Positions 14,578 to 40,558 of a stretch of DNA of 60,000 nt are shown piece after piece. The notes beneath the pieces are model-generated. The model was not told where the DNA came from and did no database searches. It saw only the letters and a list, made by a program, of their open reading frames with translations. The translations under genes were made by a program, and so were the position numbers. Location: contig NC_087251.1 in assembly GCF_037042905.1 (NCBI RefSeq), positions 6,450,001 through 6,510,000 of the forward strand, written 5' to 3'. Each line of letters begins with the position of its first letter. Position 1 is the first letter of the stretch. The stretch is from Lytechinus pictus (lineage: Eukaryota).

Positions 14578-14840
14578 CGGTGTGTTGGCTCAGTTGGTAG
14601 AGCGTCCGTCTCACAACCGGGAGGTCGGGGGTTCAAACCCCGGCCGCGTCAGACCAAAAGACGTTAAAAGATGGGAGTTGCTGCTACCCTGTTTAGCGTT
14701 TAACGATTAAAGGGATAGAGCTTCGTCGATCTGGCGCTGCACAGCGGCTGCCGGGCCCACGATCATTGGGCAAAGCAAATTTTCGGAGTATTTCATTTCA
14801 TGTCTATTTCGAACAATAAATTATGGATTTTCATTTTTTT
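14578..14840 (+). mobile_element. tRNA-derived SINE (Val-CAC-like head, Meta-domain-like body)
   Basis: A box TGGCTCAGTTGG, loop CTCACAA, B box GGTTCAAAC; acceptor stem does not pair; continues gtcagaccaaaagacgttaaaagatggg...; (tttca)n tail. Confidence 0.85.
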
Positions 14841-21572: not shown

Positions 21573-21686
21573 CAGTGGCGGACCGTGACCTGGAGGAGAC
21601 AAAACATTGGAGGGGCACAGCATTGTTCACAAACAATACAGTGCCCCTCCAATGCTTTGTCTCCTCCGGGTCACGGTCCGCCACTG
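21573..21686. mobile_element. 114-bp hairpin hAT-like MITE
   Basis: Two 55-bp arms (4 mismatches) around a 4-nt loop; CAGTGGCGG termini; 8-bp TSD tcctggac (21565-21572, 21687-21694). Confidence 0.92.
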
Positions 21687-21972
21687 TCCTGGACCCCTCC
21701 CCCCAATAAAATAAAGAGGTTCCGAGACCGAGGTTAAAAAAGGATATTGAGAATAGGAAAGGAAATGAAAAAGAAGAGGGTACAATTGTAAAGGCACTTC
21801 ATACACCGTGCGGTTGTAATTGTCTATTTGGCATTCCATAATTTTATCGTCTGCGAAGATTGTAATTTTTGGCCCAAAACTGGGGCACGTTATGGCGATG
21901 GAAAAGGAATTGCATCGTTAATCGGCATATTATTTATGCCTGCCTGAGACTTTGGTAACAAGTGGCACAGTG

Positions 21973-22698
21973 GTAAGCATAAATAGAACTTTTAGGTTTA
22001 ATTTCAAGAGAACTCGCTCAGTATGCATACAGCAATCAGTGTTATCCTACTGTAGAACTTCAATAGCTCGTGTATCAGATTGATGCATTGTACGCATAGT
22101 GTGCAGGTCTTTGTGTAGTACTATAATTATGAATATTTGTTTGTATGGAAATATACAGAAACTCTTAATCAGTATCGAATTTATTGTGTAATGATAACTC
22201 AACTAGATTAAACTCAAACCTCAGTCCTGAGGAAATAAGCACTCAAATACGCCAAAACTTGATATAAGATGGTTGACATTACATTTATTGCTCACATAAC
22301 ATTTTTGCAATTACATTGTCTATTTAAGCTGTTTTCGACACCCATTGTATACAGTTAAATACATTTACAAATATTCCTTATTTGTAGGATATCAGTTTAG
22401 AGTTTATTTCTAATTTTCACAACACTTAGTGTATTAAATACTGGACAGTATTGCTATTATGATAATTTAAGTCCAATTACTTTAAATTGAAGTTAATTGT
22501 TATTCACCTTAGTATAATGTTTAGACTCATAATACAGTGGAACCTTATTATTAAAGGCACTGATGTGGCAGACTTTACCTATAACAATGTATCTTCTCTC
22601 GTCCCAAGTGCCTCGTTATAATGCAGTTGCACTGTAACATGCTTTGATATGATGATATACTTATGTTGGATTTTGTTCATTTGTTTGTTTGTTTATAG
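21973..22698 (+). other. Predicted 726-nt spliceosomal intron inside the LTR
   Basis: Donor TG|GTAAGC (the only GTAAG I found in the LTR), branch-like CTTAT 22660-22664, T-rich tract ttgtttgtttgtttatAG; spliced junction is complementary to the PBS-position sequence. 3' LTR equivalent 30692-34440. Confidence 0.6.
22535..22634. mobile_element. Decayed Tc1/pogo(Tigger)-like MITE embedded in the LTR (second copy 34277-34376)
   Basis: TA-cagtggaaccttattattaaaggcact ... agtgcctcgttataatgcagttgcactg-TA: imperfect TIRs with TA flanks. Confidence 0.6.
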
Positions 22699-22862
22699 TT
22701 TTTACGGGAATCTAAGGAACAAAGTGAATCAGCAAGCCAAAGAGTCAGCTTTGACCATAATGAAGAGACTAGATTCAATAAAGCTGTTTTGACTATTGTT
22801 TACCCAGTATGAGAACACGTGCGAGCTTTCGTTTGTTTGTCGTCGTAGTCCGGGCAGGCACA

Positions 22863-22873
22863 GTAAAAACACT
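22863..22873 (+). promoter_or_regulatory. Non-tRNA primer-binding site candidate GTAAAAACACT
   Basis: Directly abuts the 5' LTR; no TGG; 11/11 complement of the spliced LTR junction AGTG(21969-21972)|TTTTTAC(22699-22705). Confidence 0.6.
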
Positions 22874-24284
22874 TCCAACGTAGCGTCAAAATGGCCTCAT
22901 CATCATCAACAAGCCTGATTATCAAGATGGAGCCAATAAATAGACGCTAGACATTTGAGTTGAGTTCAACATGACATTTCAGCTGGATGAACCTACGAAC
23001 ATACATATGTAACTACGTTTGGCGACGAGCACAGGATATACGCTAGAGATCAGCTAGAATTGCACCATAACGCATGAATCTCAGAATCTGAGTGGATGTT
23101 GATGGATTTTGATTTGGATTGTGAAACGATGTTGTGATCCAGTCATTTCTCATATGTCTCAATAGTTCGAGGTATGTAGAGCTGTGTATGGACGCTATGC
23201 AGTTTGATCTACACTAATGTTACAGTTACAATGAATTATGGTTGCAATGCAGCAGTGTCATCGATTTATTATTGAGGTGTATTGTGGACGCTAAGCTGGA
23301 ATCGGCCACAATCGTTATTATACACTGTTATAAAATACGTGGCTTTACCATAATTTGCACCAGCAGTTGGCATGCAGCCATAATGTAACAGGACTAAAGC
23401 CCATGTTAGCGGATCAGCCAAGCCCAAGTCCAAGACTATTCTGTGTCAGCCTCTCGTAGCAGCCCTAGCATAATTTATGAACTAGCCTAATCCAGCTGAA
23501 GTCCAGCTTGAACAACAGCCCGGGAATCGGCCCGGTCAAGCCATACAGCCCGGGAGCCAGCGTGGTTTAGTCTTGTACAGTCCAGGTCCAGCCAGGTTTG
23601 AACTTGAAGCATAAATCAAGCCAACAACATTGAATTTATAAATGAAACATTGGATCTGAACTTGATGAAATAAAAGTAGTTAGAACCAGAGCTATAATAG
23701 GCTCTGTGAAACTTCAAGACTCTTGATAACAAATTAACAGAGGTCAAGTAAAAGTTGAATTTTAATAACTATTTCATGTATAGTAGTCTATTGAAAAGTG
23801 TTTCCAATATGATTCTGCAAATACTGCATGTTTTGTTTGCAGGTAGCCAGCATTAGTTTTGTGCTCAAGTGACACGAAAGTTAAAGGTGTAATTTCATTA
23901 CAAAGTGATATTGACATCGCAGTTCAGAGTCAAGCAAGGAAGGAATATGTGGCGATGTTGAACTTTATCGCATGATCGCGTGGTCTGCATTCAAGCCCTT
24001 TTGATAAGCGAATTTTGAGGCGTGCGTAAAGGCTTTATTGGGAGATGTAAAATCAAATTACTATGGAGTATTTGTAATTGCATTAGCAAGAAGCATTTTA
24101 AGCGGTTTTACATTGATGAGGTTGGTAGGCTTAGCGCTGTAGCTTTGCTTAAATTGATGTTTGATTTCACTCTAGTTGCATGACAATTTAATTTGGTCAA
24201 TTTGCTGTACAAGGTGCAAGTGCATGGTTTAGCATAAGAGGCCAGCTCCTTATTACACTTCTGTTGTGTCAAAGCCAATTAAAC

Positions 24285-27200
24285 ATGGCAGATTCAAGAA
24301 AGTCATCAAGGGAGAGGCAGCCCACGGAAAAAATGGCCGCTCTTCAGGCCTCTGAAGAATCAAAGACAGAGCGGAAGTTTTTCAAGATGTATGGCTCCCT
24401 TAAGGCCACAGTAAAGGCAGCTAGAACAATCATTAAGACAGAGACAGAAGAAGGTCCCATCAAACAACAGATATCCATACTGGAAGCTGGAGAGAGGGAA
24501 TTGATGGAAACCTACGAGATTTTGAGGAGACACAAGGTCCCCATAAGAGAGGCCACCACGAGGATGGACCGTGCCAACGCAATGGTCAGAGATAGCCTCA
24601 ACGCCTTGGAAGAAGTTCTGGGATCCCTAGAAGGTCCTTTTGACGCCGAGGATCGGAAGCAGATAGCGAAAGAATTCTTGAAACAAGAATATGCTTCATC
24701 GGTCTTCAGCTCAATTTTAAGCGAAATGGACCAAGGGGTTGAAACCAGCCAACTGCGTGGAGCCACACCAGTAATTGACATTGATAGCAATCCTGGACAG
24801 CCTGTAGAATCTCGTAACACACCATCACTTCTTCCTCAAGACAAAATGTACCCAGGAGTTGGAGTAAACCAACCACCTGAAGGTATTCAAGGGCAGTCAG
24901 CAGAATTTCCTGCCAAGACGTCATCTCCTTCCTTTCAAGATGAGATGGGCCCAGAGTTTAGAGTAGGCCAGCTACATGATAGTCTACCTGATTCGCATGT
25001 GGAACCTCGTGACAAGACACCACTACAGCCGCCTCAGACAACGTCGGTTGACGTCCAGGGCTTATGTAAGGCTTTAGCAGACAACATGTACCACACAAGA
25101 CTTCCGATGCCAGTGCCACGCACCTTTAGTGGGGATCCGCTCGAGTTTGTAGAGTTCGACAAAGGTTTCAAGACTTTGATCGAAAACCGTGGCATACCAC
25201 CAACAGAGATGCTGTATTACCTGAAGCAGTACCTGACTGGTCCGGCAAGGGAGGCCGTGGAAGGTTTCTTTTTCGGGGACTCCAAAGAGGCATATGATGG
25301 GGCATGGAGGTGCCTTCGACAGAGGTATGGTCATCCTTTTAATATCCAACAGGCGTTCCGGAAGAAGCTAAGTGCTTGGCCGAAGATAGCCTCCAAAGAT
25401 GCCATAGGTCTTCAGAAGTTTGCGGACTACTTAAAGTCTTGTGATGATGCTATGCCATATGTCACTGGCCTCCAGGTGCTAAACGACTGCTATGAGAATC
25501 AAAAGATGATAGCCAAACTTCCAGACTGGCTGATTAGTAGCTGGAATAGGGTGGTATCAAATGAGTTGGAAGGCGGCAGCTATCCTTCATTTTCTAAGTT
25601 TGTGAAATTTGTTGCTAAGGAGGCAAGGATAGCCAACAATCCCATTTCTTCTCTAGGTGCCCTGAAATCTGAGGACTCTCAAAGAGAATCAAGTCCCAAG
25701 ACCTTCAAGATCAAGCGAGAAGCAAGAAATAAAGGATCTGCTTTGGCTGTCAACACCAAGGAAAGTGCCAAAGGCAAGAACATCCCAAACCAAGTCAAGA
25801 AGGCTCCAAAACCTTGCTGCCTGTGTAGTGAAACTGGACACAAGTCCGAGGACTGTGACAAGTTTTTGGCCAAGCCACTTTCTGAACGCAGGAAGTTTGT
25901 TCAAGAAAATCATGTATGCTTTGGTTGCTTACAGAAGGGGCATTTTTCTAAGGCATGTAAACAAAGGCTGAAGTGTAGTACATGTGGTAAGCGCCATCCC
26001 ACGGCTCTTCATGAGGAAAACCCTACGATAAGAGAGGACAATGCGCACAAGAGTGAAGGAGCTTCTAAGGACAGGGCTACGTCTTGCCAAGTCCGTTCTG
26101 GAAAACAAGCTAGCACTTCGATGATTGTACCAGTGTGGGTCGCGGCAGAACAAGCACCATCGTCAGAGATTCTGACTTACGCCCTCCTGGATACCCAGAG
26201 TGATTCATCGTTCATTCTAGATGAAGTAGCGCAAGCCCTGAATGCTAAGCAGCAACCCATACGCTTAAAGTTATCTACTATGACTTCGTCATCGAACATT
26301 GATTGCAGCGTGACCTCAAGTATCTTAGTTAGAGGTATGATGTCGCCCTCCCAGCTCAAGATAGGAAAATGCTATACGCGTGACTTCATACCGACTGATA
26401 GAGAACACATCCCAAGCAGAAGTACTGCTGAAAAGTGGACTCATCTCCAAGATGTTGCAAGAGAGATGCCAGCACTTCAGAGATGCGAAGTCGGCCTACT
26501 GATAGGCTATAATTGCCCAAGAGCTCTGACACCAAGACAAGTAGTTACTGGTAGCGATGTAGAACCATTTGCTGTTCGAACTGACCTCGGCTGGAGTATT
26601 GTTGGCTTTGCCGAAGAAGAGAATGCCATGGACTTCAGTAGCCAGTGTGGGAGGGTTTCTACTCGCGAGATACCATTTCCGAAGCCAAAGGAGATCATAG
26701 GGTTGCTTGAGGCAGATTTCGCAGAGGACAAATCGCCGGACAAAGCATGCTCTCAGAATGACCTACAATTCTTGAAACACCTTGAGACCAACATTGTACA
26801 ATGCGAGGATGGTCATTTGCAGATGCCGCTGCCCTTCAAGACCCGGCCAAACCTTCCAAGCAATAAAAGGTTGGCAACCGTTCGATTCGAACACCTCCAT
26901 CGAAAGCTTAAGAAGGACGAAGCATATAGAGACAACTATACAAGCTTCATGACAGATATCATTAATGGTGGCTTTGCAGAACAAGTAGAGACCAAGGCGC
27001 CGCCTGGAGAAACAAATTACATACCACATCATGGTGTGTACCATCCAATGAAGAAGAAGATGAGAATAGTGTTTGATTGTTCCGCGAAGTACGGCGGCAC
27101 CTGCCTTAACGATCATCTGCTCAAGGGACCGGACATGATAAACTCATTGGTGGGAGTCCTTTGTCGGTTCAGGAAGCACAATGTAGCAGTGCTATGTGAT

Positions 27201-30011
27201 GTTGAGAAGATGTTCTTTCAGTTTAGGGTCGCTGAGGATGACCGAGACCTCCTGCGCTTCCTGTGGTTCCAAGATAACGACATCAACAAGGAGCCAGTGG
27301 ATTATCGCATGAACGTCCATCTTTTTGGTGCCGCTTCTTCGCCAGGTTGCGCCAATTATGGCTTAAAGTATCTGGCTAGACATTGCAGCAATGAATTTCC
27401 ATTGGCATCTCGTTTCGTCGAGCGCAGCTTCTATGTGGATGATGGGCTGGTGAGTGTATCCAGTGAAGAGGAAGCCATTCAGTTGGCCAATGAAGCCAGA
27501 CAACTTTGCAGCAAGGGTGGCTTACGTCTCCACAAGTTTGTTTCGAATTCTAAGGCAGTTCTGGAGAGTCTGCCAAAGTCTGAGCGTGCCAGTGATGTCA
27601 CTGACTCAAACTTGGATTTTGAGGATCAAGTAGAGCGTGCTCTGGGGATAGTTTGGAATGTGGCCACGGATGCCTTTTGTTTCAGAATTTCCCTGAAAGA
27701 GAAACCAATGACACGGCGGGGAATTCTGTCCATAGTCGCATCCCTTTATGACCCTCTCGGATTTGTGGCTCCGGTCGTTCTCGATGGCAAGAGAATCCTT
27801 CAAGAAATGTGTCGTAGCGGGCTTGGGTGGGATGATCCAGTATCCGAGAACCTGCAATCAAGGTGGGAGCAATGGTGTAAGGAAATCCCGCAGCTAGAGG
27901 AGCTAAGAATACCTCGGTGTTATCATCCTGCTGAGTTTGGTGATCCTGTAACAGTGCAGCTACACCATTTCTCGGATGCCAGCAAGTCTGGTTATGGCCA
28001 ATGCTCTTATTTGCGTCTTGTTAACCAGAAAGGAGAAGTTCACTGTTGTCTGATCTTCGGCAAATCAAGGGTTGCGCCAACCAAGGTGGTTACAATTCCC
28101 AGGTTAGAGTTGACAGCGGCAGTTGTGTCAGCTAAGGTGCACTCTATGTTGAAAGAAGAGCTAGAGTATCATGATGCCGAAGATTTCTTCTGGACAGATT
28201 CCCAAGTAGTCCTGGGATACATCCACAATGATGCGCGGAGGTTCCACACGTTTGTTGCTAATCGAGTCCAGCTAATTAGAGATAGGACTTCTCCCGACCA
28301 ATGGCATTATGTCTCGACTGATCAGAACCCTGCTGACCATGCTTCCAGAGGATTGAGCGTAAGTCAGCTGGGTAGCACAAATTGGTTCCAAGGACCAAGC
28401 TTCCTCTGGGAGAAAGACTTTGCAGTAGGAAGTATCTCTCCGACACTCGCCGTTGGGGATCCGGAAGTGAGAGCAACCAACCTATCGACAACTACTCATT
28501 CGGAACCGTTGAACCTCCTCTCGCGCCTTACCAGGATCTCTAGTTGGAAGATGATGATCAAGGTATTGGCTCGTCTACGGATGGTAGTGAAGGGAGCAAG
28601 ACAAGGTTCCTTAGTTCGTGAGAGAAAGGACGCAGAGCTGTTCGTTCTGCGGTTAGTTCAACAGGAAGCTTACCCTGAAGAAATCAAGGCTCTGACGTCG
28701 GACAAGACCGTTAAAACGACAAGTACCATCCATGACCTTGACCCAATAATCCTTGATGGGATCACGCGAGTGAAGGGCAGACTTGGCGAACTATCGACAG
28801 AAGTGGCTCACCCTGTTATCCTGCCCAAGCGTAGCCCTATCACTCGGGCGATTATCCGCCACTTCCATGAGGACATCAAACATCAGGGTCGAGGAATGAC
28901 GCAGAATCACCTGAGAGCCAATGGATTCTGGATTGTAAACGGATCTAAAGTCGTTGCAGAGGTATTGCGAAAGTGTGTGTCATGCAGACGTCTTCGTAGG
29001 CCTCAAGAAGAGCAGAAAATGGCAAACTTGCCAAGAGATCGAGTAGAACCTTCGGCTCCTTTCACGAATGTGGGTATGGATTGTTTCGGTCCTTTCTTTG
29101 TAAGGAGAGGTCGTTCTGATATTAAGCGATATGGGCTTATATTCACATGTCTCTGTTCAAGAGGTATCCACATTGAGATGCTCGACGACATGACTACCGA
29201 CGCATTCATCAATGCTCTCCGCTGTTTCATAGCAATTAGGGGAGCTGTCAGACAGATTAGGTGCGACCAAGGCAGTAACTTCGTAGGAGCAAGAAACGAG
29301 CTCCAATCTGCATTGAGAGAGATGACTTCAGACCAAGTGAATACGTACCTTGCAGACCAGCAATGTGAATTTGTCTTCAACGCCCCTCACTCAAGTCACG
29401 CAGGTGGCGTGTGGGAAAGACAGATTCGAACCGTCAGAAGTGTCTTAAGGGCTACCATAGACCTGTGTCCAGGAAGACTCACAGACTCCGCTCTTCGTAC
29501 CTTGTTTTACGAAGCCATGGCAATCGTCAATAGCCGACCGTTAACAGTGACCAATATGAATGACCCAAGTGCGGATGCACCTCTCACGCCAAACCACCTC
29601 CTTACTCTGAAGAGGACGGTTCCGTTGCCCCCTCCTGGGCAATTTGTGAAGGAGGATGTGTACACGCGTAAAGCCTGGAGAAGGGTTCAGTTCTTACTGG
29701 AACAGTTCTGGTCAAGATGGCGGAAAGAGTACTTGTTGGGACTTCAAAGACGACAGAAATGGACGATGCCCAGACGGAATTTACAAGTGGGAGACATTGT
29801 ATTGCTCACTGACGATGAAGCTCCGCGTATGAAATGGCCAATTGCGATGGTCGCAGAAGCCACTCCTGATGAAGATGGTCTGGTCAGACGGGTACAGGTG
29901 CGCGTTGGAACGAAAGACCTTGACAACAAAGGTCGTCCAAACAAGAAGCTTGCCGAATACTGGAGGCCGGTTCAGAAGCTCGTACTGCTTCTGGAAAAGG
30001 TACCTCCATAG
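24285..30011 (+). CDS. BEL/Pao gag-pol polyprotein (~1908 aa from the first ATG)
   Basis: Uninterrupted ORF: DUF1759-like gag (FSGDPLEF), three Cys/His knuckles (CCLCSETGHKSEDC, CFGCLQKGHFSKAC, CSTCGKRHPTALH), protease ALLDTQS, RT FYVDD, RNase H LHHFSDAS...TIPRLEL, integrase HEDIKH...CVSC, GMDCFGP, CDQGSNF, WERQI, DUF5641-like C-terminus. Confidence 0.97.
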   Translation: MADSRKSSRERQPTEKMAALQASEESKTERKFFKMYGSLKATVKAARTIIKTETEEGPIKQQISILEAGERELMETYEILRRHKVPIREATTRMDRANAMVRDSLNALEEVLGSLEGPFDAEDRKQIAKEFLKQEYASSVFSSILSEMDQGVETSQLRGATPVIDIDSNPGQPVESRNTPSLLPQDKMYPGVGVNQPPEGIQGQSAEFPAKTSSPSFQDEMGPEFRVGQLHDSLPDSHVEPRDKTPLQPPQTTSVDVQGLCKALADNMYHTRLPMPVPRTFSGDPLEFVEFDKGFKTLIENRGIPPTEMLYYLKQYLTGPAREAVEGFFFGDSKEAYDGAWRCLRQRYGHPFNIQQAFRKKLSAWPKIASKDAIGLQKFADYLKSCDDAMPYVTGLQVLNDCYENQKMIAKLPDWLISSWNRVVSNELEGGSYPSFSKFVKFVAKEARIANNPISSLGALKSEDSQRESSPKTFKIKREARNKGSALAVNTKESAKGKNIPNQVKKAPKPCCLCSETGHKSEDCDKFLAKPLSERRKFVQENHVCFGCLQKGHFSKACKQRLKCSTCGKRHPTALHEENPTIREDNAHKSEGASKDRATSCQVRSGKQASTSMIVPVWVAAEQAPSSEILTYALLDTQSDSSFILDEVAQALNAKQQPIRLKLSTMTSSSNIDCSVTSSILVRGMMSPSQLKIGKCYTRDFIPTDREHIPSRSTAEKWTHLQDVAREMPALQRCEVGLLIGYNCPRALTPRQVVTGSDVEPFAVRTDLGWSIVGFAEEENAMDFSSQCGRVSTREIPFPKPKEIIGLLEADFAEDKSPDKACSQNDLQFLKHLETNIVQCEDGHLQMPLPFKTRPNLPSNKRLATVRFEHLHRKLKKDEAYRDNYTSFMTDIINGGFAEQVETKAPPGETNYIPHHGVYHPMKKKMRIVFDCSAKYGGTCLNDHLLKGPDMINSLVGVLCRFRKHNVAVLCDVEKMFFQFRVAEDDRDLLRFLWFQDNDINKEPVDYRMNVHLFGAASSPGCANYGLKYLARHCSNEFPLASRFVERSFYVDDGLVSVSSEEEAIQLANEARQLCSKGGLRLHKFVSNSKAVLESLPKSERASDVTDSNLDFEDQVERALGIVWNVATDAFCFRISLKEKPMTRRGILSIVASLYDPLGFVAPVVLDGKRILQEMCRSGLGWDDPVSENLQSRWEQWCKEIPQLEELRIPRCYHPAEFGDPVTVQLHHFSDASKSGYGQCSYLRLVNQKGEVHCCLIFGKSRVAPTKVVTIPRLELTAAVVSAKVHSMLKEELEYHDAEDFFWTDSQVVLGYIHNDARRFHTFVANRVQLIRDRTSPDQWHYVSTDQNPADHASRGLSVSQLGSTNWFQGPSFLWEKDFAVGSISPTLAVGDPEVRATNLSTTTHSEPLNLLSRLTRISSWKMMIKVLARLRMVVKGARQGSLVRERKDAELFVLRLVQQEAYPEEIKALTSDKTVKTTSTIHDLDPIILDGITRVKGRLGELSTEVAHPVILPKRSPITRAIIRHFHEDIKHQGRGMTQNHLRANGFWIVNGSKVVAEVLRKCVSCRRLRRPQEEQKMANLPRDRVEPSAPFTNVGMDCFGPFFVRRGRSDIKRYGLIFTCLCSRGIHIEMLDDMTTDAFINALRCFIAIRGAVRQIRCDQGSNFVGARNELQSALREMTSDQVNTYLADQQCEFVFNAPHSSHAGGVWERQIRTVRSVLRATIDLCPGRLTDSALRTLFYEAMAIVNSRPLTVTNMNDPSADAPLTPNHLLTLKRTVPLPPPGQFVKEDVYTRKAWRRVQFLLEQFWSRWRKEYLLGLQRRQKWTMPRRNLQVGDIVLLTDDEAPRMKWPIAMVAEATPDEDGLVRRVQVRVGTKDLDNKGRPNKKLAEYWRPVQKLVLLLEKVPP

Positions 30012-31251
30012 AGCAGGTATGTATGTACACTTGAGATTGTTTGGAGCGGGTACAAATGTTTGACCTTGCATTTGCACATGTACTTCGTTTTCTGGTACAG
30101 TTTAAAAATTTAGGACTCAAATTCTGATCTTGTTTGCTGCGAATTTTAGATACACAGCGCTTAAATATTGTCGCAACCTTTAAGCTTGCCTTACAACCTT
30201 TGCAGTGTGTGTTATAATCTTTTACAGCACATGTTATAAACGTGCATTGTTTGAGTTCCGCATCATCACTTATGCCATTCTGGTTTGATCAAGCTATTCA
30301 ATTGCCATGTTATTCGTGTTGTAGATTGCAAGTGTACCAATTTACATGCAAGAGGTGTATGGAGTGCTTGCTTAAAAATTTCCATATTATGGTCACATTA
30401 TTTCACATGCACCACTTATGTAATACTAGTAAATGCATTTTCATATATATGTAAGTGTACTCATGCATGTGATTATGTTACCAGTGAAGGCAAATTTGGT
30501 GGGAGTGTAAAGGCACTTCATACACCGTGCGGTTGTAATTGTCTATTTGGCATTCCATAATTTTATCGTCTGCGAAGATTGTAATTTTTGGCCCAAAACT
30601 GGGGCACGTTATGGCGATGGAAAAGGAATTGCATCGTTAATCGGCATATTATTTATGCCTGCCTGAGACTTTGGTAACAAGTGGCACAGTGGTAAGCATA
30701 AATAGAACTTTTAGGTTTAATTTCAAGAGAACTCGCTCAGTATGCATACAGCAATCAGTGTTATCCTACTGTAGAACTTCAATAGCTCGTGTATCAGATT
30801 GATGCATTGTACGCATAGTGTGCAGGTCTTTGTGTAGTACTATAATTATGAATATTTGTTTGTATGGAAATATACAGAAACTCTTAATCAGTATCGAATT
30901 TATTGTGTAATGATAACTCAACTAGATTAAACTCAAACCTCAGTCCTGAGGAAATAAGCACTCAAATACGCCAAAACTTGATATAAGATGGTTGACATTA
31001 CATTTATTGCTCACATAACATTTTTGCAATTACATTGTCTATTTAAGCTGTTTTCGACACCCATTGTATACAGTTAAATACATTTACAAATATTCCTTAT
31101 TTGTAGGATATCAGTTTAGAGTTTATTTCTAATTTTCACAACACTTAGTGTATTAAATACTGGACAGTATTGCTATTATGATAATTTAAGTCCAATTACT
31201 TTAAATTGAAGTTAATTGTTATTCACCTTAGTATAATGTTTAGACTCATAA

Positions 31252-34200
31252 ATTAATGTTGTAAATCGGATCAAAAATCAGATCGAAAATCGGATCGGCA
31301 GTTAAGCTTCTAAAATCGAAATCGAATCGAAAATCGAATCGGCGATGTTTAAAAACAAAGGAATACATCAAAATGTTGTTCGCGGTCGCGCGCATCTTCC
31401 TGACAAAGTCACAAAGACGAATGCATTGGAATGGAAGTCGCCAACATGCGCGATCGTTTTAAAGCCAGGGGTTTTGAGGTGTTATTGCTTTAAAATAAAC
31501 CGAGTGATTTTTATTAGAAAGATAAACGAAAGACGCATCTTCCGAGCAAAGGCGCAAAGGAAAATAAAATGAAAATATTTCTCATAGATCACAGGTTAAT
31601 GAACGATCGGCGGGACATCTTTTAGAAGTATTTTTAGGTGCTAGCGATTTAGAATTATTGGAATGATCTCTTACGACGCATCATCTTAAAGTCGCAAGTG
31701 CAATTAAAATGAAGTAGAAGACGCAAGCACGCACAATAAGCTCCGTCAATAGTACAGTCTTTAAAAGTTTATGGCGGGGTCCGCTATCACCACGAGGTTG
31801 AAAATAAAATGTATATCATCATAAACGATGTAAGAGAGTAACGCAATAAGCTCCGTCAGTAGCACGATCTTTAAAAGTTCACGGCGGGGTCCGCTATCAC
31901 CACGAGGTTGAAAATAAAATGTAAATCATCATAAACGATGTAAGAGAGTAACGCAATAAGCTCCGTCAATAGTACAGTCTTTAAAAGTTTATGGCGGGGT
32001 CCGCTATCACCACGAGGTTGAAGAGAAGATTTATATCATTATAAAGGGGGTAAGAGAGTAGCGCAGTGAGCTCCGTCGGTAATACGACCTTTCAAAGTTC
32101 ACGGCGGCATCCGCTATCACCACGAGGTTGAAAATAAAATGTATATCATCATAAACGATGTAAGAGAGTAACGCAATAAGCTCCGTCAGTAGCACGATCT
32201 TCAAAAGTTCACGGCGGGGTCCGCTATCACCACGAGGTTGAAAATAAAATGTAAATCATCATAAACGATGTAAGAGAGTAACGCAATGAGCTCCGTCAAT
32301 AGTACGACCTTTCAAACTTCACGGCGGCATCCGCTATCACCACGAGGTTGAAAATAAAATGTATATCATCATAAACGATGTAAGAGAGTAACGCAATGAG
32401 CTCCGTCAATAGTACGACCTTTCAAAGTTCACGGCGGCATCCGCTATCACCACGAGGTTGAAAATAAAATGTATATCATCATAAACGATGTAAGAGAGTA
32501 ACGCAATAAGCTCCGTCAATAGTACAGTCTTTAAAAGTTTATGGCGGGGTCCGCTATCACCACGAGGTTGAAAATAAAATGTAAATCATCATAAACGATG
32601 TAAGAGAGTAACGCAATGAGCTCCGTCAATAGTACGACCTTTCAAAGTTCACGGCGGCATCCGCTATCACCACGAGGTTGAAAATAAAATGTATATCATC
32701 ATAAACGATGTAAGAGAGTAGCGCAGTGAGCTCCGTCGGTAATACGACCTTTCAAAGTTCACGGCGGCATCCGCTATCACCACGAGGTTGAAAATAAAAT
32801 GTATATCATCATAAACGATGTAAGAGAGTAACGCAATAAGCTCCGTCAATAGTACAGTCTTTAAAAGTTTATGGCGGGGTCCGCTATCACCACGAGGTTG
32901 AAGAGAAGATTTATATCATCATAAACGATGTAAGAGAGTAACGCAATAAGCTCCGTCAATAGTACAGTCTTTAAAAGTTTATGGCGGGGTCCGCTATCAC
33001 CACGAGGTTGAAGAGAAGATTTATATCATTATAAAGGGGGTAAGAGAGTAGCGCAGTGAGCTCCGTCGGTAATACGACCTTTCAAAGTTCACGGCGGCAT
33101 CCGCTATCACCACGAGGTTGAAAATAAAATGTATATCATCATAAACGATGTAAGAGAGTAACGCAGTGAGCTCCGTCGGTAATACGACCTTTCAAAGTTC
33201 ACGGCGGCGTCCGCTATCACCACGAGGTTGAAAATAAAATGTATATCATCATAAACGATGTAAGAGAGTAAAGCTCCGTCAATAGTACAGTCTTTAAAAG
33301 TTTATGGCGGGGTCCGCTATCACCACGAGGTTGAAGAGAAGATTTATATCATTATAAAGGGGGTAAGAGAGTAGCGCAGTGAGCTCCGTCGGTAATACGA
33401 CCTTTCAAAGTTCATGGCGGCTTCCGCTATCACCACGAGGTTGAAAATAAAATGAATATCATCATAAACGATGTAAGAGAGCAACGCAATAAGCTCCGTC
33501 AATAGTACAGTCTTTAAAAGTTTATGGCGGGGTCCGCTATCACCACGAGGTTGAAGAGAAGATTTATATCATTATAAACGATGTAAGAGAGTAACGCAAT
33601 GAGCTCCGTCAGTAGCACGATTTTTAAAAGTTCACGGCGGGGTCCGCTATCACCACGAGGTTGAAAATAAAATGTATATCATCATAAACGATGTAAGAGA
33701 GTAACGCAATAAGCTCCGTCAATAGTACAGTCTTTAAAAGTTTATGGCGGGGTCCGCTATCACCACGAGGTTGAAGAGAAGATTTATATCATTATAAAGG
33801 GGGTAAGAGAGTAGCGCAGTGAGCTCCGTCGGTAATACGACCTTTCAAAGTTCACGGCGGCATCCGCTATCACCACGAGGTTGAAAATAAAATGTATATA
33901 ATCATAAACGATGTAAGAGAGTAACGCAGTGAGCTCCGTCGGTAATACGACCTTTCAAAGTTCACGGCGGCATCCGCTATCACCATGAGTTGGAAGAGAA
34001 GCGGAAGAGAAGATATCTATCCTCTTGAACATCGCCATAGATAATACCGCGTCTTTCTCCCTGAATAATGCGACCTCTAAATAGCTAGCACCTCAAAAAC
34101 AATCTTGAAATATGTTCTGAGCGATCACGCACTGTAACCAGATCTACGCCGATTTTTATTTTCGATTTTTTCCTTCAAGGGGCATGATCGAAGATCGGCA

Positions 34201-34266
34201 AGTGATTGCCGATTGTGGTGAAATCGAATGGAATCGGTTGCCGATTGCAAAATCGGTTACAAGCTT
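31252..34266. mobile_element. Non-autonomous hAT-like DNA transposon carrying a 110-bp tandem array
   Basis: 8-bp TSD actcataa (31244-31251 / 34267-34274; alternative parse ctcataat with TIR taatgttgtaa / ttacaagctta); empty site visible in the 5' LTR at 22525-22532; dense AATCG/CGATT subterminal repeats; inverted blocks ~31583-31653 and ~34075-34147; no transposase. Confidence 0.85.
31732..33999. repeat. Tandem array of 21 x 110-bp variant units
   Basis: Core ccgctatcac at 31781, 31891, 32001 ... 33211 (110-bp steps), one 103-bp unit, then 33314 ... 33974. Confidence 0.97.
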
Positions 34267-34890
34267 ACTCATAATACAGTGGAACCTTATTATTAAAGGC
34301 ACTGATGTGGCAGACTTTACCTATAACAATGTATCTTCTCTCGTCCCAAGTGCCTCGTTATAATGCAGTTGCACTGTAACATGCTTTGATATGATGATAT
34401 ACTTATGTTGGATTTTGTTCATTTGTTTGTTTGTTTATAGTTTTTACGGGAATCTAAGGAACAAAGTGAATCAGCAAGCCAAAGAGTCAGCTTTGACCAT
34501 AATGAAGAGACTAGATTCAATAAAGCTGTTTTGACTATTGTTTACCCAGTATGAGAACACGTGCGAGCTTTCGTTTGTTTGTCGTCGTAGTCCGGGCAGG
34601 CACAACAATATCGAACGATTTTTTTGATATTGTGTTCAAATTTGCAGCTTAATTTGATTTTTAATTCAAAATGTAACTTTTTTGCTTACTCCCTTCACTC
34701 TCTCACGAATATTTAGAGATTAACCCCGTACGCCATTTATGCCGCCACTAATATTTTTACTTTTATCCCCACTGGGATGAGGAAACATCAACAAATAATA
34801 GTTATGGATAATCTATAGACAGTTGCTAACATGATTATAAGTACAAGGAGCAGCTGACCATGAATAGTCGAATTCCAAGGTCATTTATTG

Positions 34891-38865: not shown

Positions 38866-40558
38866 TTTTTGTCTCGCCTGCGTAGCGGAGCGAGACATAG
38901 GTATCACTATTTCCGGCGTCGTCGGCGTCGTCGTCGTCAACAATTGTGTTGTACACCCAATAACTTTCTATAGCTTCGAGGTAGGATCACCAAATTCATA
39001 CCAGAGGTCCATCTCTTGAAGGCACAGGTCAAGTTCGAATATGAGTCGAATTTGATTAAGGTCAAAGGTCAATGAACTTTCCATGACTGGCACTGTGCTA
39101 TGTTGTACACCCAATAACTTTCTACAGCTTCGAGGTAGGATCACCAAATTCATACCATAGGTCCATCTCTTGAAGGCACAGGTCAAGTTCGAATATGAGT
39201 CGAATTTGATTAAGGTCAAAGGTCAAAGGTCAATGAACTTTCCATGACTGGCACTGTGCTATGTTGTACACCCAATAACTTTCTATAGCTTCGAGGTAGG
39301 ATCACCAAATTCATACCAGAGGTCCATCTCCTGAAGGCACAGGTCAAGTTCGAATATGAGTCGAATTTGAATAAGGTCAAAGGTCAATGAACTTTCCATG
39401 ACTGGCACTGTGCTGTGTTGTACACACAATAACTTTCTAAAGCTTTGAAGTGAGATCGCCAAATTCATAACAGAGGTCCATCTCCTGAAGGCACAGGTCA
39501 AGTTCGAATATGAGTCAAATTTGAATAAGGTCAAGGGTCAAAGGTCAATGAACTTTCCATGACTGGCACTGTGCTGTGTTGTACACACAATTACTTTCTA
39601 AAGCTTCGAAGTGAGATCGCCAAATTCATAACAGAGGTCCATCTCCTGACGGCACAGGTCAAGTTCGAATATGAGTCAAATTTGAATAAGGTCAAGGGTC
39701 AAAGGTCAATGAACTTTCCATAACTGGCACTGTGCTGTGCTGTACACACAATAACTTTCTATATCTTCGAGGTAGGATTGCCAAATTCATACAAGGGGTC
39801 CATCTTTTGAAGGTGCAGGTCAAGTTCGAATGTGAGTTGAATTTGATTAAGGTCAAAGGTCAATGAACTTTCCATGACTGGCACTGTGCTGTGTTGTACA
39901 CACAATAACTTTCTATAGCTTCGAGGTGGGATCGCCAAACTTGTAACAGAGGTCCATCTCTTGAAGGTACAGGACATTTTGCCCTCACATCTATCATAGC
40001 CTTTAATCAAAATGTGCTTATAAAAAAACTGCACTCTTTTAAACTTCCTACTCATACCCTATTGCTTATTTTATCTTGTAGTACTTCACTCTTGCATCAT
40101 TTACTGATCATATGCACACAGATCAATTTAGAAAACCCTACTGCTAAAATGAAGGCAAGATGGCTAAAAATCACACACATTAAGTTTTTATATTTATCTT
40201 TCATGCACAATCTTTCCTCCATTTTTTCAAACAATAAGTTTGCCTTAACACCTTAATAATTAATTTAATTTTACAATTTTACTCACATTATTATTAATTA
40301 CATTCTTTTTCACTAACATTAATTTCCTTACTTGCATGGAAATAATTATAGCTTCATAGTATTAACAGCATTCTTAGTGTTGTCTGATTTTCTAGGGATA
40401 AAGTAGGCCTATACCATGAATGCATATGTAAACTGTCAATACCACAATTCACCCCCTAAACTGCCGACAGCCTCAGATGTCATATAGCATAGTTTTGACA
40501 TGCAGTCTCTTCAGGACTGCAATATGCAGGCGAGACAACGCTTGGCGTTTGCCTTGTT
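38866..40558 (+). mobile_element. Helentron-associated non-autonomous element (HINE/DINE-1-like)
   Basis: T-run, 5' subTIR gtctcgcctgc (38871-38881) with partial inverse gcgagac (38890-38896), (GTC/GGC)n microsatellite, central tandem repeats, 3' subTIR gcaggcgagac (40526-40536), hairpin aacgc-ttg-gcgtt, ends in TT. Confidence 0.85.
38945..39973. repeat. 154/161-bp tandem repeat, ~6.6 copies
   Basis: gtacac anchors at 38951, 39105, 39266, 39420, 39581, 39742, 39896; length classes differ by one 7-bp ggtcaaa-type module. Confidence 0.95.

Follow-up and report, generated by a model that had tools for sequence, protein, structure and literature searches.

Introduction

Reverse transcription of long terminal repeat (LTR) elements is taught as a reaction primed by transfer RNA (tRNA), to which self-priming of the Tf1 type is the exception. 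In retroviruses and retroelements with splice donors in the repeat region (R) or in the leader, the acceptor lies far downstream and splicing yields subgenomic messenger RNAs. Here we describe a BEL/Pao LTR retrotransposon of Lytechinus pictus, contained in a stretch of 60,000 nucleotides (nt) that was analysed over its whole length and is called the window (assembly GCF_037042905.1, contig NC_087251.1, positions 6,450,001 to 6,510,000 of the forward strand; positions given without a contig are those of the window). As judged from the sequence, this element probably does without a tRNA primer and uses as an 11-nt self-primer the junction that is formed when an intron inside its own LTR is spliced.

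Self-priming is established for Tf1 and Tf2 of Schizosaccharomyces pombe. In Tf1 the 11 bases at the start of the transcript pair, and the cut made by RNase H falls between bases 11 and 12 (excerpts of PMC7175516). For related chromoviruses, self-priming has been proposed (excerpts of PMC3601003). Insect BEL/Pao elements are described with tRNA primer sites, Achilles with a tRNA-Tyr site over 18 nt (PMC4580426, in part) and a Pao-Bel element of Anopheles with an Asn site (PMC3212995, in part).

The element described here shares with the Tf1/sushi group a site next to the 5' LTR that would pair with the element's own RNA and not with a tRNA, with a core of 11 nt. However, these 11 nt are contiguous in the DNA of Tf1, whereas here they are split by an LTR intron of 203-1115 nt, and Tf1/sushi elements belong to the Ty3/gypsy chromovirus lineage, whereas the domains of the window element are those of BEL/Pao. 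With retroviruses that have donors in R or the leader it has in common spliceosomal signals in or beside the LTR; unlike there, the whole intron lies inside the LTR and the junction would itself be the primer. With Achilles and the Anopheles element it shares the superfamily, the domain set and the LTR structure but, unlike the tRNA 3'-end sites in the accessible parts of those reports, the primer sites of the present clade match the elements' own splice junctions. The working would thus be Tf1-like, outside the Tf1 group; what would be new is a primer that exists only after splicing. A full-text search, which did not extend to subscription papers and supplements, found no report that describes BEL/Pao self-priming, an LTR that contains an entire intron, or a spliced primer. 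The terms PBS (primer-binding site), tRNA, intron and self-priming have no occurrences in three BEL/Pao surveys (PMC3118150, PMC554778, PMC6238403), and the accessible parts of PMC3601003, PMC13524379 and PMC8220671 contain nothing on BEL/Pao self-priming or on an LTR intron.

Results

The LTR splice junction and the primer site

The window element is a BEL/Pao element because of the Pfam domain set of its 1939-amino-acid (aa) open frame (Peptidase_A17, 1.3e-50; DUF5641, 6.2e-26; DUF1759, 3.8e-15; RVT_1; Integrase_H2C2), which bears out the label given in an earlier preliminary description of this locus. LTR ends of the TG..CA type, a 5-bp target-site duplication (TSD) and a polypurine tract were found as well. 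The two LTRs are 100% identical (21787-22862 compared with 30506-31251 plus 34267-34604).

Introns were judged by the GT-AG consensus of donor and acceptor with a pyrimidine tract. Such an intron, with GTAAGC, a T-rich tract and TAG, was found in the LTR at 21973-22698; its donor reads AGTG/GTAAGC (the G being 21973; a slash marks the splice site here and below) and its acceptor ..tttatAG/TTTTTAC, with exon 2 starting at 22699. Joining 21972 to 22699 produces AGTG/TTTTTAC, the exact 11-nt reverse complement of GTAAAAACACT, the sequence that adjoins the LTR end. In a split-complement scan this was the sole 11-nt split complement in the window LTR. The longest contiguous complement in the unspliced LTR has 8 nt, GTTTTTAC, and lies 726 nt downstream of the donor. 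The primer site starts with GTAAAA and has no tRNA-type TGG.

The preliminary description had placed the LTR end at the CA of 22862 with no TGG after it, which a base-by-base reading of 22863-22873 confirmed, and its positions, among them those of the donor (21973) and the acceptor (22698/22699), were all correct; the CTTAT motif that it names lies at 22660. Its exact 11-nt match between junction and primer site was reproduced by the scan, as was the limitation of unspliced RNA to 8 bp.

Copies without the intron

The host assembly (812 Mb, 368 contigs) was searched with the window LTR plus primer site. Only the best candidates of the genome searches were scored, so that all copy counts are lower bounds. 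The window family has at least four further full-length copies (five in all), each with an open 1939-aa frame, and at least one solo LTR. One full-length copy, on contig C11, measures 8343 bp and has a TSD of its own (CACAA, 5 bp). Its 1939-aa frame is open, and it has 9 mismatches to the window copy in 7994 aligned nt. Both of its LTRs match LTR positions 1-186 and 912-1076 only; they lack exactly 21973-22698 and read ..GGCACAGTG/TTTTTACGG... We read this copy as the product that is expected if RNA spliced at 21972/22699 were reverse transcribed.

The search for intron-less LTRs was extended to LTRs of five other families (C10a, C14g, C25, C9a and C9b types). For the C10a type, matches to LTR positions 1-290 and 1407-1618 lie directly side by side, with the join read at the level of single bases; for C14g, matches to 25-217 and 420-574 abut in the match table. 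A candidate was obtained for C25, where the match stops exactly at donor position 622, and no intron-less LTR of the C9a type was found among the 45 matches listed. With the C9b type, the search led to the aberrant copy on contig C3 (see below). LTRs without the intron occur in at least two families besides that of the window. At the level of matches, intron-less candidates are located at C6:10466201-10466579 and C17:8520618-8521335.

Survey of related elements

A protein search with the reverse transcriptase (RT) region listed 94 BEL/Pao matches in the genome. From these, 20 elements were sampled, including the window copy and its nearest relative C346; they were picked by hand, not at random, for long open frames and for varied classes of identity and frame length. 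A usable 5' LTR end was present in 18 elements, with an RT identity to the window element of 37-71%. Two were dropped: C3q, the fetched pieces of which held no LTR pair, and C9r, whose LTR pieces were only 89% alike and gave no result. Also left out was a copy of the C346 family on contig C16, in which the donor region is missing and the acceptor and primer site agree. The LTR end of C346 was placed by the aligned island ..GGCAGGCACA, because the contig end cuts its 3' LTR.

In 17 of the 18 elements the primer site is an exact complement, over 11-14 nt, of a GT..AG junction in the element's own LTR (Table 1); the 18th, C4j, has a match of 10 nt, which is weak on its own. The core pairing covers 11 nt in 9 of 18. 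The paired site starts 0-6 nt past the LTR end in all 18. The introns, 203-1115 nt long, are unrelated in sequence. Their donors (GTAAG, GTCAG, GTATG, GTTAG or GTGAG) are all inside the LTRs, and in their acceptors CAG or TAG comes after a pyrimidine tract. In 16 of 18, a polyadenylation signal (AATAAA or ATTAAA) is present between acceptor and LTR end. For two elements the first match was rejected since its donor (position 933 in C8p, 178 in C6n) lay outside the LTR, and was replaced by one of 11 nt with an in-LTR donor. In C19f, a 15-nt match with a donor at position 150 of the fetched piece was set aside, and the 13-nt match at the donor homologous to that of C14g was counted.

Table 1. Predicted splice junctions of the surveyed elements, length of the complement to the primer site, and distance of the paired site from the LTR end
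Element	Junction	Match (nt)	Spacer after LTR end (nt)
Window copy	AGTG/TTTTTAC	11	0
C346	AGTG/TTCTTAC	11	0
C10a, C2h	TTCG/ATTGTTAT	12	0
C25	TTG/TATTCTAT	11	0
C9b	AAGGAG/TTTTTAC	13	0
C9a	AAGAG/TTTTCAC	12	0
C13e	AGAAG/TTTTCAC	12	0
C13i	AGAG/TTTTCAC	11	0
C14g, C19f	ATTTG/AATGTTAT	13	0
C5k	ACAGTTG/TTAAAC	13	4
C3l	CAATTG/CGAAC	11	3
C34m	AAACAGTTG/CGAAC	14	about 5
C17o	CGTT/ATTGAAC	11	4
C8p	TGAC/ATTGAAC	11	6
C6n	AGAA/ATTGAAT	11	about 3
C4j	AGTTG/CTAAC	10	about 5-6

The surveyed elements represent 16 distinct states of junction and primer site, and the co-variation between the two that the preliminary description had proposed to look for in related BEL families was indeed found. When the window copy is compared with C346, a change in exon 2 is matched by one in the proximal primer site (TTTTTAC with GTAAAAA, TTCTTAC with GTAAGAA). 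In four pairs with the same exon 2, the end of exon 1 differs and the distal primer site differs with it: window copy and C9b (AGTG and AAGGAG), C9a and C13e (AAGAG and AGAAG), C3l and C34m (CAATTG and AAACAGTTG), and C17o and C8p (CGTT and TGAC). Because of these four comparisons, exon 1 is, on the evidence of co-variation, a partner in the pairing. The LTRs of the window copy and of C346, its nearest family, align in three islands only, one at the donor, one at the acceptor and one that comprises LTR end and primer site. A perfect match of 11-12 nt is kept in all of nine further, diverged 5' LTR copies (six from the C9a and three from the C10a family; LTRs 90-97% identical to the query copy), and within families these nine copies revealed conservation only and no covariation. 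Primer-site position 12 differs in five of the six copies from the C9a family with exon 1 unchanged, so that the conserved core in this family is 11 nt; the same variability accords with a primer whose start coincides with the first paired base.

Two observations on these sites may be added. The primer site of C346 (GTAAGA..) itself resembles a splice donor. The 8-nt sequence GGCACAGT occurs both at the end of exon 1 (21965-21972) and across the border between the unique 5' region (U5) and the primer site (22857-22864), a dual occurrence seen in the window family and in C346 only.

Self-priming as in Tf1, without any splicing, would have the transcript start at or near 22698 and its first 8 nt, GTTTTTAC, act as primer; the apparent intron would then be the unique 3' region (U3), and intron-less copies would stem from occasional splicing in the 3' untranslated region. 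The 8-nt contiguous complement, about 165 nt before the LTR end and thus at a typical R-U5 size with AATAAA downstream, would suit such an arrangement, and a covariation restricted to exon 2 would be compatible with it. We nevertheless consider it very unlikely, as the ends of exon 1 covary with distal primer-site positions at constant exon 2, as the contiguous part of the match is just 5-9 nt among the families against 11-14 nt for the split match, as the donor island is kept in LTRs that otherwise cannot be aligned, and as an LTR on contig C3 (see below) has exon 1 joined to 7 nt and then complementary DNA (cDNA).

A host RNA, be it a tRNA, a tRNA fragment or another small RNA, could also be the primer, the match with the LTR junction being incidental. 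TGG does not stand at the start of any of the 16 distinct primer sites, each matches the junction of its own LTR, and a primer shared by all and supplied by the host would leave the family-specific compensatory changes unexplained. A tRNA-Val (CAC) gene at 14579-14651 is the only tRNA gene of the window, to which the tRNA comparison was confined; it offers no complement of at least 6 nt to the 30 nt after the LTR. Although insect BEL/Pao elements have been reported with tRNA primer sites (parts of PMC4580426 and PMC3212995), we judge a host primer highly improbable here.

Chance matches were estimated with a scan that accepted any split complement in the LTR, required GT and AG only, and used 18-mers downstream of the primer site. 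Two of 290 control windows reached at least 11 nt with the window LTR, and 44 of 7135 (0.6%) with 12 LTRs pooled. Non-cognate pairs of LTR and primer site did so in 3 of 128 cases, cognate pairs at offset 0 in 10 of 12. For the six spacer-bearing elements with at least 11 nt, the start of the primer site was scanned at 13 or 26 offsets, and by our arithmetic the chance of at least 11 nt is about 8% per element at 13 offsets and about double at 26. The strongest statistics are therefore those of the 11 spacer-free elements.

Apart from this background of 0.6%, little can be said for a match by chance, or for an intron that is in truth a nested insertion with the intron-less LTRs as the ancestral form; we give this possibility next to no weight. 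A match is present in 17 of 18 elements, with unrelated introns at the same place and with consensus donors and acceptors. The intron is not flanked by a duplication, the intron-less C11 copy is 99.9% identical to intron-containing ones, and independent insertions at one site would be needed in at least 16 lineages.

The genome is rich in BEL/Pao copies with open frames of about 1900 aa, and several of the sampled families include LTR pairs that are 100% identical, which points to BEL/Pao elements being very active in this host. Relatives in other hosts were not found among the metagenome contigs and viral contigs searched.

A probable junction-to-cDNA joint on contig C3

On contig C3, an element of the C9b family (L060:87-346, with L061 and L062) has a 3' LTR that contains U3 and exon 1, ..GGCAGAAAGGAG, followed by TTTTTAC and then directly by TGTAGCTGAAGC.., which is the end of U5 in reverse complement. 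The sequence then turns back into U5, with a native CAATTG palindrome at the turn, and finishes at the normal CA. Altogether 45 consecutive nt are the reverse complement of the U5 end plus the 13-nt primer site; they are made up of the 13-nt junction and of 32 nt that resemble nascent minus-strand DNA, the putative cDNA beginning right after ..TTTTTAC. The inverted arms are 29 nt long and perfect. The left end of the element is truncated 42 nt before the LTR end and its 5' internal region holds a satellite-like array; a 5' LTR at the expected place had to be discarded, as satellite was found there instead.

This joint looks like a fossil of a primer together with its nascent minus-strand DNA. 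RNA ending in ..AAGGAG/UUUUUAC-3' would have been extended by RT on U5, from the base that adjoins the primer site; the extension would then have reached the end of a broken template and continued on the other strand, and this aberrant product would have been inserted.

The pairing may of course be real and have a different function, for instance in packaging, in dimerisation, in circularisation of the genome or in the control of splicing or of translation, with another molecule as the primer. Here, the primer is predicted from sequence, and in the intron-less R-U5-primer-site RNA the 11-bp helix closes both the minimum-energy and the centroid fold as a long-range helix, which would be in line with such a role. 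Still, we regard it as unlikely: the paired site is located 0-6 nt past the LTR end in every element surveyed, where minus-strand synthesis must start, there is no TGG-type tRNA site, and the C3 joint has the appearance of DNA synthesis from the 3' end of the junction into U5.

RNA reads and start site

RNA was checked on 21650-24350 with two raw single-cell RNA runs and two contig runs. Some of the 39 raw reads lie inside the intron, and no pile-ups of starts or ends were seen. In the Logan contig runs X5 and X1 the intron path and a 59-nt junction word are both present. In run X23, three raw RNA reads extend leftwards from the LTR start at 21787 into a different flank, which hints at insertions elsewhere or at read-through transcription in the animals that were sampled; an automatic remark has reads of this run 'seem cut' at 22670-22700. 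The distance from a TATA-like motif to the donor ranges from about 22 to 45 nt among the families, and TATA spacing was abandoned as a predictor of the start site since it is too variable.

Other features of the window

Coordinates are collected in Table 2. The insertion that splits the 3' LTR measures 3015 bp, has weak terminal inverted repeats and is flanked by an 8-bp target duplication, ACTCATAA, at 31244-31251 and 34267-34274. Most of it is a 110-bp unit repeated in tandem about 21 times (31629-34121), and it may be a non-autonomous DNA transposon with a satellite. Within the leader, about 22978-23256 has 69-75% identity to sequences scattered over at least five other contigs; another repeat may have been captured by the leader or be shared with it. 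A second tandem array, of 5-6 copies at an alternating spacing of 154/161 bp, is located at 38947-39996.

Table 2. Features of the window element
Feature	Position	Strand	Basis or remark
BEL/Pao LTR retrotransposon, complete copy	21787-34604 (LTR to LTR)	+	recently active in our reading
TSD ACAAT, 5 bp	21782-21786 (left), 34605-34609 (right)	+	read in sequence
5' LTR, 1076 bp, TGT..ACA, final CA at 22862	21787-22862	+	LTR pair comparison
TATA-like tatttat, upstream of donor	21931-21937	+	possible role in transcript start
Exon 1, final 4 nt AGTG	21969-21972	+	pairs with primer-site positions 8-11
LTR intron, 726 nt	21973-22698	+	GTAAGC donor, CTTAT at 22660, T-rich tract, TAG
Exon 2, initial 7 nt TTTTTAC	22699-22705	+	pairs with primer-site positions 1-7
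Predicted primer 3' end, C	22705	+	predicted from pairing
Polyadenylation signal AATAAA, 3' of acceptor	22777-22782	+
Putative primer-binding site GTAAAAACACT, adjoining LTR end	22863-22873	+	sequence complementarity
Non-coding leader, about 1.4 kb	22874-24284	+
gag-pol open frame, first methionine at 24285, BEL/Pao domains	24285-30011	+	Pfam
Polypurine tract GGTGGGAG	30498-30505	+	precedes 3' LTR
3' LTR, split by insertion 31252-34266	30506-34604	+	exon 1 end 30691, exon 2 start 34441

Discussion

The splicing-dependent self-priming put forward in the preliminary description is supported by the intron-less copies, by the covariation of junction and primer site and by the joint on contig C3. 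In the mechanism that we propose, the transcript would start a few to about 20 nt upstream of the donor. The intron at 21973-22698 has the promoter-proximal part on one side and the polyadenylation signal on the other; its splicing would join AGTG to TTTTTAC, and the resulting 11 nt of RNA would pair with the 11 nt directly after the 5' LTR. The RNase H of the element would cut after the C, presumably as in Tf1, and the 3' end of the junction RNA would prime minus-strand synthesis into U5. The primer RNA would end in ..AGUGUUUUUAC, linked to DNA complementary to 22862 and the positions before it.

The 5' copy of the intron would be the one that is spliced to yield the primer. The short strong-stop DNA would then jump to exon 2 of the still-unspliced 3' copy, by which the intron would be restored in the new LTRs, and this would be why intron-bearing LTRs predominate. 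RNAs spliced at both ends would lead to intron-less copies such as that on C11. Nonsense-mediated decay may enforce the unspliced state of the 3' copy, as its junction would lie about 680 nt after the stop codon of pol. The start site, the RNase H cut, action in cis or in trans, the choice between the 5' and the 3' primer copy and a regulatory role are what we infer. More tentatively, a capped micro-exon of about 3-9 nt and the first 5-8 nt of exon 2 might form an 11-14-nt primer at the very 5' end of the RNA throughout the clade, with the 3' intron kept unspliced.

Several observations weigh against priming by a spliced 5' junction or ask for additional assumptions. Reads that join 21972 to 22699 were not seen, among 20 and 19 raw RNA reads only. 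The depths in the contig runs (X5, 14.1 for the junction record and 19.6 for the intron; X1, about 78 for the exons and 39.6 for the intron) are unreadable as splicing, since the junction is also present as DNA in the C11 copy, and whether these runs are RNA or DNA was guessed. Intron-containing LTRs outnumber intron-less ones by 9 to 2 in the window family, so that one has to assume, in addition, that the two copies of the intron are spliced unequally or that priming takes place in trans. In the C9a family, a perfect TATATAA occurs only 22-29 nt before the donor, so that exon 1 would have about 3-6 nt, unusual for a first exon in spliceosomal splicing. The fold of the R-U5-primer-site region is no stabler than that of shuffled sequences (z -0.62). 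In the C3 joint, U3 lies upstream of the junction, and a primer from the 3' copy would therefore account for the joint no less well than one from the 5' end; a spliced RNA may have supplied the primer from its 3' LTR copy, or exon 1 may have been passed through in a later jump. The joint may also have arisen at the DNA level, by a double template switch using the 13-nt identity. Finally, the survey, the copies and the joint all stem from a single genome.

Conclusion

In conclusion, if priming by the spliced junction is true, the primer of these elements is absent from the DNA as such and is created by RNA splicing, and retrotransposition would be tied to the activity of the spliceosome. This would explain why automatic annotation based on tRNAs misses their primer site, and it predicts intron-less LTR copies as a characteristic by-product. 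Identity of the junction with the primer site offers a simple sequence test that can be applied to any animal genome. Splicing by the host might both license and limit mobility, and might act as the regulatory switch for transposition that the preliminary description proposed. All in all, such priming would suggest a host-controlled checkpoint for a very active clade of transposons.

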